From Dehalococcoidia bacterium (lineage in GTDB: Bacteria; Chloroflexota; Dehalococcoidia; Lucifugimonadales; UBA3495): a stretch of DNA of 64,000 nucleotides. Location of the stretch: the NCBI GenBank assembly GCA_965207865.1, contig CBDBNP010000005.1:112055-176054 (forward strand), given 5' to 3'. The notes under the pieces were generated by a model that ran no database searches, was not told the DNA's origin, and worked only from the letters and a program-made list of their open reading frames with translations. Positions 56,197-64,000 of this stretch are shown piece after piece; the stretch's first letter is position 1; each line of letters starts with the position of its first letter. A program made the translations under genes and the position numbers.

Positions 56197-57787
56197 TTGT
56201 TGTCTGTTGCTCAGCTACAACCAAATCGGCGGGAATGGCCAACGTGATGGTAACTTTATTGTCGCCATCTATGGTTGCGCCTTCCACTAGCTGTTCCAGA
56301 ATTTCCTTCCTCTGTCCGAAGGACAATTTTTCCAGACCTTGAGACACTTTCTTTGCCCACAGGCCAATGTCCTCCGATTGACACACCCTGTTTTGGGCCG
56401 TTGCCTCCCTGCCCTGGAGGTCCTCAAGCCTTTTTGTGCGGTGCTGCAATTTTGCAGCGATTACGCCGCGTTGACGGTCGAGTTGATCTTGATCAATCCT
56501 CCCAGTTACGAAAAGCGACACGGCGCGTTCATCCTCTTTTCGCGACTCCTTGACCTTCAATTGGGCGGCCGTGATTTCTTTGTCCAAATCCCCGCCATTT
56601 GCTTCGATTACGTTTCCCAGACTGTTCGTAATCCGCTCAGGTTGCCGTAGCACCTCTGCGACTTCCTCCCATATGAGGTCTTCGAGCAACTCGGCGCGGA
56701 TGAATTTTGGCTCTCGACAATTTGTGCGGCGCTGTTGCATTCCGTAGCATCGGTAATACCTACGGGGAGGATCAAGCTCGTAACTGTAGGTTCTTCCGCC
56801 ACGCTTGACTGAATTTTGTTTCGTGGCTCGCCCTCCCATCAGCATCTCACACACCTCGCAACGTACGAGGTGTTGCACCATGTATTCAACTGTGGTGTTT
56901 CGTTTCGAGCGACTCTTTCGAACTTCCTTCAGTTTTTGAGCTTCATTCCAAGTGTCCTCGTCAACGATTGCTGGTACCGGAACCGGAATCCACGTCTCCT
57001 CAGGCTGGTCATACTGCCTCCTGCCCAGTTCCGTGGAGATGTGCCGCTTCCTGCCGTACCACCAAACCCCTTTGTAGGCTTCGTTACCCAACATTCGGCT
57101 TAGGTGGGAATCGTGCCAACGGTGTCCAATTCCAGTCGCTGTGGGAACTCCCTCCCCTGTGAACAAAGCTCCGATGGGTTTGATTCCGAGTCCTTCGTGA
57201 ACATATAGGTCGAAAGCCCTGGCCACCACCTCCGCCTCGCTCTCCTCGATTTCAGGTTTCCCGTCTTCTCCTATTCGATACCCGTATGGCAGGCCGTTGC
57301 AGGGAATTTGTCCGTTTCTGGCCGCACCTCTTCTCCCCATGGACATACGCTGTTTCATGTTATCCAGTTCGATCTTGCCCACAACGGCGTAAATGCCAAA
57401 GGTATTCATGTCAATGGTGTCGGTAACAGACACGACCTCAATGTTGTTTGCTTCCACAACTTCCATCAGTGCTGCGGCAGGATACATGCCTCTGCTGAGG
57501 CGGTCCGACTTCCAGCACACAATGACATCGCAAGCTCCTTCCTCACAGTATTTCAACATGCGCTGAAAACCTGCCCGATGCTTGGACCAGCCGGGGCCTA
57601 TGTCTTGTTCACGTCCGACAACGTCCCAGCCTTCGAGAGCACAGAGGGCTTCCATTTCAGTAAACTGCTCTGGAAATGACACCTTGTCATCTTCAGCCTG
57701 CGTCCTGTCGGAGACTCTCGCATAGAGAAAAGCTCTCTTTCTTCTTGGTGTAGGCTGAATTCGAACTGTTTTGGCCATCACTTTCAC
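56180..57787 (-). CDS. large serine recombinase (integrase)
   Basis: Catalytic [14 protein letters not shown], recombinase domain PYGY...[12 protein letters not shown], zinc ribbon LVRCEVC...YYRC...C, coiled coil, IEEL-like C-terminus. Confidence 0.93.
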
Positions 57788-58020
57788 CTCAAAGCCATAA
57801 CGTGAATTGATACTCTGGAACCTGGAGCCAAGGTGGCCTTAGGATTTGGCCCAGGGGATTCTGGCGCCTGGTGTCTATGTCTCCTCGACACAGTATGTCG
57901 CTCCAAGCAAAACTTCATCTCTGTCGCGTCGCTTAGCGGCACACTGCCTTGAGCCCGTGAGACTATCCGGTCCAAGTTGTCTCGTCAACGAAGGGTGGCG
58001 CTTTCCTCTTAGATTCAGCT

Positions 58021-58304
58021 CTATAAGTGGCCATCGTCCGTTCCATCTAAGCCATCAGCATCTCCTTCTGGCTTTCCATCCAGAGTGTCAAGGCCCGCCG
58101 CTTCCAAAATGAGGTGGTAGGCTTTTCGAAGACGCGAAGGAGCATCAGGAGCCGGATAGAATCTGACTTCCACAACCTTCATGCCCGGGCCACCGCTGGC
58201 CGGGCTCTTCTTTGCTGCCGCATTCTTCTTTGCAGCCACTTTCGCCTTCCCGGACCTCCTCCGCTCCGCTGAGACGGGATTACCCGACATGAACGCCGGA
58301 ATCA
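58021..58304 (-). CDS. small hypothetical protein upstream of the integrase
   Basis: Lys/Ala-rich segment then MKVVEVRFYPAPDAPSRLRKAYHLIL; start uncertain (ORF track begins at 58389). Confidence 0.45.
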
Positions 58305-58577
58305 TCCAACAGCCCCGCCTGCCAAGCCGGATGATCGGAAACTGGTGTGTATTACCTGTCCGGAAACCATAGATGGAGTGTATTGACATAGGCTTTGTTG
58401 TTAGCGGACTTGGTGGAAATCTGGGTCACTCTGAACATTGGCAATTGGTCTTGTCCGTCCTGGTGCTTCGCTGTGGATGAATACTGTTCGAGTCCTTCAT
58501 CCACAGCCGGGTGGCGATCGAGAAATGCATTGGATGCACCGAGGCCGTCCACCTGCTGACCATGAACCAGTCCCTAG

Positions 58578-61671: not shown

Positions 61672-62682
61672 CTATCCGAAGCGGCTGGACTCGTTCGGTC
61701 GACGGACCAAAGGTGGACTCGCCGCAGCCGCTGCACCGCCCGATGCGCCACCGATGGAGCCCTGACCAGAGGAACCACTGCCTCCGGACGTCGAAGACTT
61801 CCTGAATTTGTCCCCGAAGAGTTCCTGCCAGAGTTTGATAGCCTTGTCAGCATCCGGCTCGGCTTTCGCCTGCTTTGCTGTCCGAGCATACGACTGAACC
61901 CGGTCTCTGAAATTTGAATACCTTCGCTGGTCCCAGTGCCGGTTGAAATCCTCAGTGGACAGCACAGGATTCCTTATCAGTGGCATATTGGGATGCTGAT
62001 GCAGGTATTCGTTAATCCGTGATAGCACGGTCTCCAACGTGTCGGCCACAGTGCTCACCGCCACAGTTCCTCGGTCCGACGCCCTGATGGTGTTGCCCGC
62101 CAGGGTGGTCAGCAGAATCGACTTGGCGCTGAAGCTGTTCTTGTGGTCCCGCAGGTGCTTGAGCAACCTCACGACCCGCTTCAGGTTCCCGCCCGTGATC
62201 CTGTTCTTATCATTGAACCAGTTTCGGTATCCGTCGCCGTCCGTCTCATCGAACTTGTTTTTGTTCCGGTCACATACGTAATGCTTGCCGTCTATGGTCA
62301 CCCGGGGAACGACGTCGAGGTGAAAGTCGCCGGCATAATCGACGGTCACGCACCGAGTCTTCAGCTTGAGCTTTTCGGCATAGACCTTGTTGCTTCTAAG
62401 GGCTCTGTCAATTTCGTGGACATAGTCCTTGGGTTCCCACTTGGGGTTCGGGTTCATCACTATCTGGATGTCGGCATCGTATTCGTCGTTGTCATCCACC
62501 GGCTTGATGAGCGTCCCAAGTGCGTATGAACCCTGCCTCTCCATCGTCTGGTAGCCGTGCAAATTGTCCTTAAGGCAGCCGTTCACCCCTCCCACGGCAG
62601 TCTCCAATCGCTCCATTCGGCGTGGATTTAGGTTCACCTCATCCCTGAGGAAATCATCGAATTCCTGGTTGTTCTTGGCCAA
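61672..62682 (-). CDS. cGAS/DncV-like nucleotidyltransferase (CD-NTase, SMODS-type)
   Basis: QGSYALGTLIKP...EYDADI (hGS plus DxD), KTRCVTV.Y, HLDVVP third Asp, LKRVVRLLKHLRD, NPVL..EDF; TTG start after GGAGG. Confidence 0.9.
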   Translation of the reverse strand: MAKNNQEFDDFLRDEVNLNPRRMERLETAVGGVNGCLKDNLHGYQTMERQGSYALGTLIKPVDDNDEYDADIQIVMNPNPKWEPKDYVHEIDRALRSNKVYAEKLKLKTRCVTVDYAGDFHLDVVPRVTIDGKHYVCDRNKNKFDETDGDGYRNWFNDKNRITGGNLKRVVRLLKHLRDHKNSFSAKSILLTTLAGNTIRASDRGTVAVSTVADTLETVLSRINEYLHQHPNMPLIRNPVLSTEDFNRHWDQRRYSNFRDRVQSYARTAKQAKAEPDADKAIKLWQELFGDKFRKSSTSGGSGSSGQGSIGGASGGAAAAASPPLVRRPNESSRFG

Positions 62683-62700
62683 ATCAATCCCTCCTTGCAG

Positions 62701-63735
62701 CTATGCCAGCGCCTCGAACGGCGTGGCCGTGGCAGCGAAAAACACCTCCTTTAACCCCTCGGAGTGCTGCTCAGCGACCGCAAGCGCCTCCTGAGGCAAC
62801 AACCGCGTGGCCTTAGCCCAATCGTCCAGGTCGATAGGCTCCGTGCCCTGCGGACGGTCCAATCTCGTTACCTTGTCGCGACCGATCAGAAGCCCGGCCT
62901 GGTTCACTGCGGTGAGGGACTGGTAGTGCATGGCAACGTAGATGATCTCCCGCCACTGGAACTGACCGGCCCCGGACGTCTGCTTGCTGTTGATGCGGAA
63001 CCCGTCCTGTCCGCACCCGATACTCAGGATCGCGATTTTCTCCCGCCGCACTGTGAAGCAGTTCAGAGCTTCCACCAAGGCCATCATGGTGGGATTGTTG
63101 GCCCATATCCCGCCGTCCAGCAGGATGTAACCATCCTGGACCACCGGTTTAAGGTAGGTCGGTGCCGCCGATGTCGCTGCGGCCACCTCGGACATGGGCT
63201 TATCGCCGTCCAGGAAATACCCCGGGTGGTGGGGAGTTTTGTAGACCGCGGGGTCCCCGTGCTTGGCTTCGGTCGACGGAATGAGCAACCGGTACTTGGA
63301 CTCCCGTAGCGTTCTTGCACCCAGGGTCTGCAAGAGCAACTCATCAAGGGCGGCCCGATCATATCGATTCTTGGACAACCTCCGAAACAGCCGGTTGCTC
63401 TTCTGACGTTGCTTCGGCGGGAAAACCTTGTGCCCTTCGTTCACGTACAGATCCAGCAACGACCGAGCAGTTAGTCCGGCACCCAGACCCAGGGCGATGA
63501 TCCCTCCGGTCGAGGTGCCGGCTACCAAGTCGAAGTAATCCCCGATGGGCTGACCGCTGAGGCAATTCTCTTCCAGATAGACAAGAATGGCCGCCGGAAA
63601 AATACCCTTTATGCCGCCACCATCCAGCGACAAAATCCTGAACGTCCTGTCGTCAGGCCACGGCAGTGGTTCCCTGCGGGTCTGCAGGATCGTGTCTGAC
63701 CTGCGCGTTTGTATGCTATGACCAGAATTCATCAA
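62701..63735 (-). CDS. capV: patatin-like phospholipase, CBASS CapV-type effector
   Basis: LSLDGGGIKG oxyanion loop, GTSTG nucleophile, ATSAAPTY, LDGGIWANNP catalytic Asp; first gene of the CD-NTase operon. Confidence 0.88.
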   Translation of the reverse strand: MMNSGHSIQTRRSDTILQTRREPLPWPDDRTFRILSLDGGGIKGIFPAAILVYLEENCLSGQPIGDYFDLVAGTSTGGIIALGLGAGLTARSLLDLYVNEGHKVFPPKQRQKSNRLFRRLSKNRYDRAALDELLLQTLGARTLRESKYRLLIPSTEAKHGDPAVYKTPHHPGYFLDGDKPMSEVAAATSAAPTYLKPVVQDGYILLDGGIWANNPTMMALVEALNCFTVRREKIAILSIGCGQDGFRINSKQTSGAGQFQWREIIYVAMHYQSLTAVNQAGLLIGRDKVTRLDRPQGTEPIDLDDWAKATRLLPQEALAVAEQHSEGLKEVFFAATATPFEALA

Positions 63736-64000
63736 TTCGCCTGATTTTCTTCGACCTACTCTCCAACGTATCAGACTGATTCAACGAAGGTCAATCGAAT
63801 GGTGTCAGTAAAATACAATTTGTAGTATCTAACTGACGGCCTACCTCAACTAGTTGGGGTATCTAGAGTGTCAGGGGCGATTGGGTTGTAAATGACGGAC
63901 AAAATTCCCTAATCTTGGCCAAGTGCCACAATGCGTGCTCAGTGGAGCGCTGCACAAGCGATGAGCCTCTCAAGATTCAAGATTATCGACACTCGGACCC

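Follow-up and report, generated by a model that had tools for sequence, protein, structure and literature searches.

The window analysed here is a 64,000-nucleotide stretch (G000:C5:112055-176054) of a 4.68-Mb metagenome-assembled genome (MAG) of a Dehalococcoidia bacterium (G000; 8 contigs, 4.6% contamination). Its last part, positions 56197-64000, is with a probability of about 0.8 the left attachment-site (attL) end of a genomic island that a serine integrase inserted in comM and that measures at least 244,536 bp. ComM is a helicase of natural transformation. A sequence-only reading of this part had proposed a comM-targeting serine-integrase element with defence cargo, and both junctions, a comM that is restored on joining, a large serine recombinase (LSR) and an operon of the cyclic-oligonucleotide-based antiphage signalling system (CBASS) have now been found. 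The features around the left junction, including the open reading frame (ORF) next to the LSR and an insertion sequence (IS) in comM, are as follows.

52795-53559, + strand: comM 5' part (ChlI and the start of the AAA+ Mg_chelatase domain, from Pfam and translation), 99% identical in amino acids (aa) to ComM of the nearest relative, G011, where the gene is intact
53560-55927, - strand: IS21-family element in comM (Pfam IstB_IS21) with a 5-bp target duplication, ACAGC; istA is at 54371-55852 and istB at 53595-54605
55928-56198, + strand: comM middle part, from Walker B to ...VTYPAS (Pfam Mg_chelatase positions 59-159), ending in the B arm of attL
56180-57787, - strand: LSR, 535 aa in its integrated form (Pfam Resolvase 19-160, Recombinase 183-288, Zn_ribbon_recom 306-376)
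56197-56198, no strand: central TT of attL (the crossover), with its partner TT in the right attachment site (attR) at G000:C6:95137-95138
56199-56245, no strand: P' arm of attL on the element side, conserved in the island of G044
58021-58389, - strand: small basic ORF of 122 aa directly upstream of the LSR, 51% identical in aa in G044 (tblastn)

Homology to comM ends for good at 56197-56198, within the last codons of the recombinase gene, which bears out the earlier observation that comM stops exactly at the serine recombinase. A comM 3' motif and a matching att half-site had been predicted farther on; no comM 3' end lies downstream on C5, and both are present on a second contig at C6:95137. 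The missing 3' part (FMMVAAMNPCPCG...) occupies G000:C6:95137-95637 and contains Mg_chelatase 145-206 and Mg_chelatase_C; its ORF reads ...HPANFMMVAAMNPCPCG..., and Mg_chelatase_C (C6:95329-95616), with Mg_chelatase 145-206 directly upstream, occurs once in the genome. The two attachment sites are ...ACCTACCCGGCAAGT TT GTTGTCTG... (attL) and ...CACCCCGCCAAT TT CATGATGG... (attR). They lie in direct orientation, have only TTT in common when placed in frame, and a search for other copies finds each arm single-copy in the genome. When the flanks are joined at TT, comM is open in frame (...VTYPAS|FMMVAAMNPCPCG...) with no bases gained or lost, and the rebuilt 62-nt empty site (attB) is identical at 62/62 positions to the intact comM of G011 and at 59/59 to that of G019. 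The match of attL and attR is not due to chance because the restored attB equals the intact comM of these two relatives base for base. The rebuilt element site (attP) has mirror arms GTTGTAACTG / CAGCTACAAC, each 13 nt from TT, with weaker symmetry to ~38 nt per arm, and its predicted sequence across TT is …CACCCCGCCAAT-TT-GTTGTCTGTTGC…. Unlike the imperfectly palindromic attP, attB has few symmetric positions. Independent metagenome contigs have their homology breaks at 56195-56198. A 2-bp conservative crossover without target duplication, exact restoration of attB on joining, and dyad symmetry in attP with less symmetry in attB form a pattern that is, on these alignments, the signature of conservative serine-integrase recombination. 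We infer that the insertion was made by the LSR encoded at the island edge, which would insert the island by attP x attB recombination at TT, splitting comM.

Empty counterparts of this site occur in relatives and in environmental populations. Full-length comM is present in 32 of the 39 genus genomes compared for the state of the gene, and the 40-kb surroundings of the intact G011 gene are collinear with C5:145.7-165.6k and C6:95.1-114.5k at 93-95% nucleotide identity. The public runs with matching contigs (X5, X6, X9, X10 and others) are sponge metagenomes. Run X5 contains attL and the LSR at 100% identity and depth 5, and its comM unitig 55936-56198 (depth 11.8) also runs into CATGATGGTCGCTGCAATGAACCCCTGCCC, the comM 3' sequence, at depth 11.2 (the attB form). 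Occupied and empty sites coexist in near-identical strains, because this unitig forks into attL-LSR and attB forms, and the break point is reproducible. Island right-end genes occur at 100% identity and depth 3.5-6 in X5 and X6, and the right end itself stands at depth 3.5-4.7. A 96%-identical LSR is present with its P' arm in X9 and X10, where unrelated ...GATGGCCTAGATGTCCAGC takes the place of comM exactly at 56197; this may represent either secondary attachment or a different arrangement in another sponge sample. Public contigs with P-arm-like sequence (90% identical) run on into unrelated DNA. It is very improbable that attL on C5 and attR on C6 come from different strains or species through an assembly or binning artefact: while MAG contamination of 4.6%, a C5-C6 join that is not sequenced through and the coexistence of close strains in sponge samples would allow it, both junctions are >95 kb away from the nearest contig end, the P and P' arms form one palindromic attP and one open integrase frame, both comM flanks match the single G011 comM locus, and the left and right island ends are equally low in depth at 100% identity in X5 and X6.

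The recombinase itself carries the serine motif YARVSDRTQ in its translation and is distant from solved LSRs, its closest relatives in the PDB being SPbeta YokA/SprA (the best), the TP901-1 integrase and others. It is ~25% identical to any phage LSR compared (from Listeria, Lactobacillus and Geobacillus phages, with A118 and U153 among the matches). An LSR search of genome contigs matched only the G044 record, and tblastn finds at least 17 LSR-like genes within G000. Three of these (C6:405259-406812, C8:14856-16415 and C8:667829-669424) are 44-48% paralogous to the comM integrase. The LSR ORF crosses the crossover, and its integrated form ends ...QQTTN|LPGR*, 15 nt within comM DNA. In the rebuilt circle (attP) form it is extended by 30 codons, ...QQTTN|WRGDSYNETIRYSWEAMLDTTRKVRIYRAKAGSE*, to 565 aa, and the DNA of this 30-codon tail adjoins attR, with 244 kb between it and the remainder of the gene. 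The tail is kept as protein in G044 (CSGDNYNEVIRYSWEAILDTTRRIRI...), in G017 on an orphan P arm (WLGDSYNETIRYSWNALPHTTRKVRI...) and in G028 (SRLSNRHKNLRYSWTVNL*), with RYSW in matching register; its 19-codon core differs between G000 and G044 by 7 synonymous and 3 conservative changes. We infer that the excised circle form of the LSR has been under selection, because the split-off tail is still conserved as protein in three other genomes. The full-length 565-aa integrase would be made only from the excised circle and the 535-aa form from the integrated state, integration cutting the last 30 codons away and leaving them beside attR. It is hypothesized that this split is a built-in switch between the integrated and excised states. 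The small ORF next to the LSR has zero Pfam or PADLOC matches, and nucleotide conservation between G000 and G044 reaches window position ~58419; the ORF is a candidate for an accessory or regulatory function in the integration module.

Three further genomes carry LSR genes associated with an interrupted comM.

G044 (OZ242027.1), same genus: LSR 84% identical in aa; same TT and same orientation; island of 174,963 bp
G028, another family of the order: LSR 51% identical in aa; crossover within CTTCAT, inverted, with the LSR beside the comM 3' half; island of 92,789 bp
G032: a different LSR (26% aa identity); comM split 9 codons downstream (NPCP|CG), with halves at C5:1080070-1081140 and 397472-397990

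The islands of G000 and G044 have conserved P and P' arms and share only ~2.4 kb (the comM end, LSR and small ORF) plus two short patches. The LSR-proximal arm in G028 is homologous to that of G000 at 19/29 positions in the same register, and the crossover there presumably falls at the same TT. On the LSR strand the central dinucleotide is TT in the inverted G028 island (within the ambiguity of CTTCAT) versus AA in G000 and G044, and this inversion fits the LSR rule because polarity is set only by the central dinucleotide. When a conserved backbone was sought by comparing the G028 and G044 islands with that of G000, only the LSR, IS elements and repeat proteins were found in common. In G032 the two comM halves are 680 kb from each other and on opposite strands, which points to an insertion and a later large inversion. 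G017 has an intact comM and no close LSR orthologue; it contains an orphan right end (C4:~1874390-1874600) in which a GMC oxidoreductase/glyoxalase block is followed by the P arm with integrase-tail sequence, and homology stops at the crossover and gives way to unrelated DNA. This block behaves like the end of an element, and unlike chromosome, because its homology ends exactly at the crossover.

In G000, comM has also been struck by the IS21-family element, whose duplicated target is the last 5 nt of the comM 5' part (ACAGC, to 53559). This element looks like a recent hop, because the island contains a 100% identical copy at G000:C5:305449-307816, and it is a second disruption of comM, independent of the island insertion. 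The IS-free comM joint (53554->55928) is found in contigs of 4 public runs. As comM is split by IS21 as well, excision of the island alone would not repair it. In the congeners G046 (C6:1129200-1132391) and G055 (C1:609687-612434), comM is broken by ~1.2-1.7 kb insertions at codons 314 and 458, which are probably IS elements. The gene appears to be often inactivated in this genus.

The island extends from G000:C5:168253 to the contig end and over C6:1-95136: 149.4 kb separate attL from the C5 end and 95.1 kb separate attR from the C6 start, and the total of at least 244,536 bp makes up 5.2% of the genome. Both contig ends belong to one tandem LRR/RCC1 gene family in like orientation, and C6:6-113 is a 94% match to the final 108 nt of C5. 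The contig break falls within at least 12 paralogous LRR/RCC1 genes of 72-bp repeats (C5:~308700-317652, C6:1-14535). C5 and C6 are most simply taken as adjacent because both end in the same repeat-gene family with the same orientation and a 94% terminal match; since the join is deduced in this way, 244,536 bp is a minimum that assumes a simple topology. The further cargo that the sequence-only reading expected beyond position 64000 does exist, as ~236.7 kb more DNA up to attR. Its description of the island as minimal is refuted by this extent across a contig break and by genes like those of plasmids or of integrative and conjugative elements (ICEs), many IS elements, recombinases and a large non-defence cargo. 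Compositional distinctness, which it also claimed, holds for the first ~9 kb, where the guanine-cytosine (GC) content is 0.577 versus 0.616 for the genome (falling from 0.60-0.67 upstream to 0.52-0.54 over the recombinase), and not for the island overall.

Gene content was surveyed with a simple ORF caller of our own, which yielded 161 island ORFs and missed low-GC genes; ~90 of the 161 proteins were scanned with Pfam, ~70 short or repeated ORFs being left out, and PHROGs profiles were applied to 10 island unknowns. The cargo nearest attL is the CBASS operon, followed by an exonuclease-RecQ-UvrD gene; frameshifts and an IS4-like element have broken it here, and in relatives it forms a single ORF of 1,711-1,735 aa. 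This fusion of exonuclease-like, RecQ-type DEAD helicase, winged helix-turn-helix and UvrD parts lies at C5:176475-183132; the G044 copy is at C1:2755095-2760236, near the LSR in both genomes, and one or two copies occur in 3 of the seven genus genomes sampled for it (G044, G019 and G017). Its UvrD part matches GajB models, making it a possible defence gene. At least 6 defence systems are present in the island, where the defence-type genes further include REase-ARP, Mrr (PADLOC mREase_IV), McrBC, a complete type I restriction-modification system (HsdR/S/M), a KAP NTPase, PDC-S26 and a GmrSD-like HEC-05 protein (693 bits). The plasmid- or ICE-like genes encode ParA, two ParB-like proteins, two Replic_Relax proteins and a HerA/TrwB-like coupling ATPase; a RecD2-type helicase is encoded as well. 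There are also PD-(D/E)XK nucleases, two two-component systems, Uma2, IS elements of the IS1182, IS701, IS4 and IS21 types, four small resolvases and three more LSRs. Giant surface-type proteins comprise Calx-beta, RTX/LRR, LRR/RCC1 and PD40 proteins, the LRR/RCC1 type being eukaryote-like, and the cargo at the attR end consists of GSDH, aldo-keto reductase (AKR), GMC oxidoreductase and glyoxalase genes. At C6:50963-54123, two adjacent opposed LSR genes (~25% identical to the comM integrase) stand by Replic_Relax and PD-(D/E)XK genes in what is probably a nested element.

The origin of this content was examined with 31 genes sampled along the island for counterparts in relatives, above all G011. 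Most have no G011 counterpart, and the rest have counterparts of 91-97% identity scattered over the variable regions of G011, several of them members of multi-copy mobile modules. Judging from these comparisons, most of the mosaic that makes up the island comes from the accessory gene pool of its own lineage, and the island has very probably grown as other mobile elements accreted. A translocated chromosome block was considered as its source and rejected: a 400-kb stretch of G011 surrounding the best orthologues contains only similar patches of 1.6-2.6 kb, and the 31 genes form no syntenic block. A real possibility, though the less expected one, is that the element was at first small (roughly 10-25 kb, with the LSR, CBASS and helicase genes) and that the interval, now fixed, was enlarged by insertions and by IS- or LSR-mediated rearrangements with chromosomal DNA. 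Many of the island's IS copies have 100% identical counterparts in the rest of the genome, there are three further LSRs and four small resolvases, GC content is the same as in the genome, and comM has additionally been hit by IS21. Genes for PD40, membrane and DUF7309 proteins have their 91-97% orthologues scattered in G011, and the right-end AKR/GMC oxidoreductase/glyoxalase block is located elsewhere in G012, G017 and G044. A single inversion would, however, have flipped one of the attachment sites, which are direct; both att arms are intact, as is the LSR ORF, and the split tail is still under coding constraint. The three independent islands at the site are all very large (93, 175 and 245 kb), neither a syntenic core block nor, in a search for them, any tRNA gene is found in the island, and the G017 right-end block stops exactly at the crossover.

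The same gene content raises the reading of an integrated episome: the island would be a megaplasmid, or else a conjugative or mobilisable element, whose circle docks reversibly in comM via the LSR. We consider this unlikely. ParA with two ParB-like proteins, the two Replic_Relax proteins, the HerA/TrwB-like coupling ATPase, the RecD2-type helicase and a full-length integrase encoded by the circular form only would all suit such an element. The Replic_Relax and ATPase genes lie far apart, however, and look like nested small elements and not like one backbone, because they are multi-copy modules at many places in G011. No backbone other than the LSR is common to the three islands, public contigs contain no attP junction, and neither VirB4 nor genes of a type IV secretion system are seen among the ~90 scanned proteins.

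Hardly any weight falls to the view that the island is a prophage of a temperate phage like WO or SPbeta. LSRs are typical phage integrases, and SPbeta, with a size of 134 kb, uses one. The sr1WO phages target the Mg-chelatase gene of Wolbachia and bring eukaryote-like genes with them (PMC9203015). Against this stands the content of the island, in which no capsid, portal, terminase or tail family is found among the ~90 Pfam-scanned proteins or the 10 PHROGs-scanned unknowns, ~70 short or repeated ORFs lying outside both scans. The earlier statement that the visible 7.8 kb is free of phage structural and conjugation genes is likewise borne out. The LSR is 25.3% identical to the WOVitA1 LSR, no nearer than to other phage LSRs, and it is not orthologous to the sr1WO recombinase, which places it outside the sr1WO lineage.

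The CBASS operon, which involves a cGAS/DncV-like nucleotidyltransferase (CD-NTase), occupies the rest of the window together with an IS remnant.

58643-59933, + strand: frameshifted IS701-like (DDE_5) transposase remnant (Pfam DDE_5 on the fragment), 185 bp downstream of cap2
60119-61666, - strand: cap2, an E2-like and E1/ThiF fusion (PADLOC E1-E2 PDLC00847, 1.2e-159, model 2-512 of 523; Pfam ThiF; PDB Cap2 7TO3/7TSQ)
61672-62682, - strand: CD-NTase (PADLOC cyclase, 7.9e-110; Pfam SMODS, 5.3e-30, DncV-like; PDB CD-NTases)
62701-63735, - strand: patatin-like phospholipase effector, CapV-like (PADLOC effector phospholipase, 1.4e-105; Pfam Patatin)
63736-64000 onward, no strand: continuation of the island past the window, a further ~236.7 kb to attR at G000:C6:95137

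The patatin, CD-NTase and Cap2 that the sequence-only reading named are confirmed by full-length PADLOC matches (E 1e-105 to 1e-159), and their similarity to solved proteins is remote (E 1e-17 for the CD-NTase, 1e-6 for Cap2). The CD-NTase motifs GSYALG and DAD (GS...DAD) are intact, its Gly/Ser/Ala-rich tail terminates ...SSRFG, and the effector has the motifs GGGIKG, GTSTG and DGG. Cyclase, adjoining effector and Cap2, as in type II CBASS, are present, while Cap3 is not: Prok-JAB has zero matches on C5 or C6:1-95136, and the IS701-like remnant, of which an intact 392-aa DDE_5 paralogue lies inside the island, stands where cap3 is expected. We file the operon as a type II CBASS without Cap3, which is apparently functional. 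The gene order is canonical and the disordered CD-NTase tail ends in Gly, which Cap2 conjugation requires, as in the Enterobacter cloacae CdnD-Cap2 (PDB 7TO3) and Vibrio cholerae CapV-DncV systems, and the lack of a Cap3/JAB gene in the island sets it apart from the full type II set. In type II CBASS the cyclic nucleotide product switches on the phospholipase effector. Ledvina et al. and Jenson et al. (2023) are said to have found that Cap2 conjugates the C-terminal Gly of the CD-NTase, priming the cyclase. On infection, the CD-NTase would make a cyclic nucleotide signal after Cap2 priming via its C-terminal glycine, and this signal would activate the patatin phospholipase, leading to membrane degradation and abortive infection; loss of Cap3 should not abolish defence. 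The G028 island encodes a 595-aa fusion of ThiF (E1) and Prok-JAB (C1:57800-59587) ~10.6 kb from its LSR, which may come from another ubiquitin-like or CBASS-type defence system.

Several observations weigh against an imported, excisable island in comM. The C5-C6 join is deduced from a repeat family in an 8-contig MAG and is not read through. The exact attR junction is absent from the X5 and X6 short-read contigs, where depth is low, and no attP circle junction was found in public contigs, which drop rare variants and give this absence little evidential weight. The GC content of the whole island (0.613) is genome-like, and the few island genes with 91-97% orthologues scattered in G011 imply that part of the DNA is lineage-resident and not a recent import. 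Excision could not restore comM owing to the IS21 element. No recombination directionality factor is recognised, the small ORF at 58021-58389 being only a candidate; the role of the integrase tail is a deduction; and the G028 crossover is ambiguous within 6 bp (CTTCAT).

Large insertions that split a host gene are known from several systems. Listeria A118 and phi10403S in comK and Bacillus SPbeta (SprA/YokA) in spsM are LSR prophages whose target gene is restored by precise excision. They share with this island the enzyme class and a split host gene, and the Listeria target is also a competence gene; these are phages with known excision, whereas no phage genes occur here among those scanned, comM is also broken by IS21 and excision is only predicted. 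In SSV1 of Sulfolobus, attP lies inside the integrase gene, and integration partitions this gene, which is intact only in the circle. The SSV1 enzyme is a tyrosine recombinase split near its start, whereas the serine integrase described here loses its last 30 codons only. The AbaR/AbGRI islands of Acinetobacter baumannii also bring large cargo into comM; they do so by Tn7-like transposition with a 5-bp duplication, in contrast to the serine integrase here. The Dehalococcoides ssrA islands with CcrB-like DsiB have a conserved integration module and variable cargo, lack transfer genes of their own and are regarded as integrative and mobilisable (PMC3146451). These islands belong to the same class, Dehalococcoidia, and resemble the present one in a ~540-aa serine recombinase by attL, variable cargo and a ParB-domain gene (PMC3146451). 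They target ssrA, are in the size range of the staphylococcal cassette chromosome and have a second small recombinase, DsiA, in the module (PMC3146451), unlike the 93-245 kb islands in comM with a module of LSR plus one small ORF.

The sr1WO phages of Wolbachia insert in a magnesium chelatase (comM-family) gene and carry eukaryote-like genes, and rearranged cases are known in which each fragment retains part of the target gene (PMC9203015). The island resembles them in having an LSR in the Mg-chelatase gene, gene halves as flanks, a symbiont host and eukaryote-like genes, and the rearranged comM of G032 looks comparable to the rearranged sr1WO cases (PMC9203015); unlike sr1WO, it has no phage structural genes among the proteins scanned, its LSR is 25% identical, and it is several times larger. 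Of the predicted site-specific LSRs, 12.4% target homologues of Mg-chelatase/comM, and there is an enrichment of competence genes among the targets (Durrant et al. 2022, PMC10083194), so that the novelty implied by the sequence-only reading was set too high. The surveyed comM-targeting elements are alike in having the LSR at the element edge and site-specific insertion inside a comM homologue's coding sequence; the sponge-associated Dehalococcoidia (Chloroflexota) host, the 93-245 kb size and the unshared cargo differ (PMC10083194). The cut made here is at ...YPAS|F..., just before VAAMNPCPCG. LSR targeting of comM is already known; what is unusual here is the scale of 93-245 kb or more with no shared backbone beyond the integrase module, together with a natural inverted-polarity pair and the split integrase tail.

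These features could mark out the LSR-borne mega-islands of sponge-associated Dehalococcoidia, at 93-245 kb or more, as a class of their own, a speculative proposal that we hold only tentatively. A tiny module (LSR, small ORF and attP in the integrase gene) would move exchangeable defence and surface payloads between symbionts as a unit, with a ParAB-maintained circle and the tail as a state switch. The full-length enzyme from the circle would drive integration, and the truncated chromosomal enzyme would be held back until a directionality factor appears. Through this genomic island, a little-studied and uncultured lineage of symbionts keeps 5% of its genome packaged behind a single integrase and possibly exchanges it; the packaged DNA includes arrays of genes for host-interaction-type proteins and the majority of the defence systems seen here. 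The three islands supply base-resolved attB/attP pairs for an LSR clade ~25% identical to characterised ones; such LSRs are of practical interest, as they evidently tolerate 90-245 kb of cargo, and the set holds a natural pair with the same arms and opposite central dinucleotides as well as an integrase that loses its tail on integration. Insertion in comM is also in keeping with the view that mobile elements escape deletion by disabling transformation-associated recombination.

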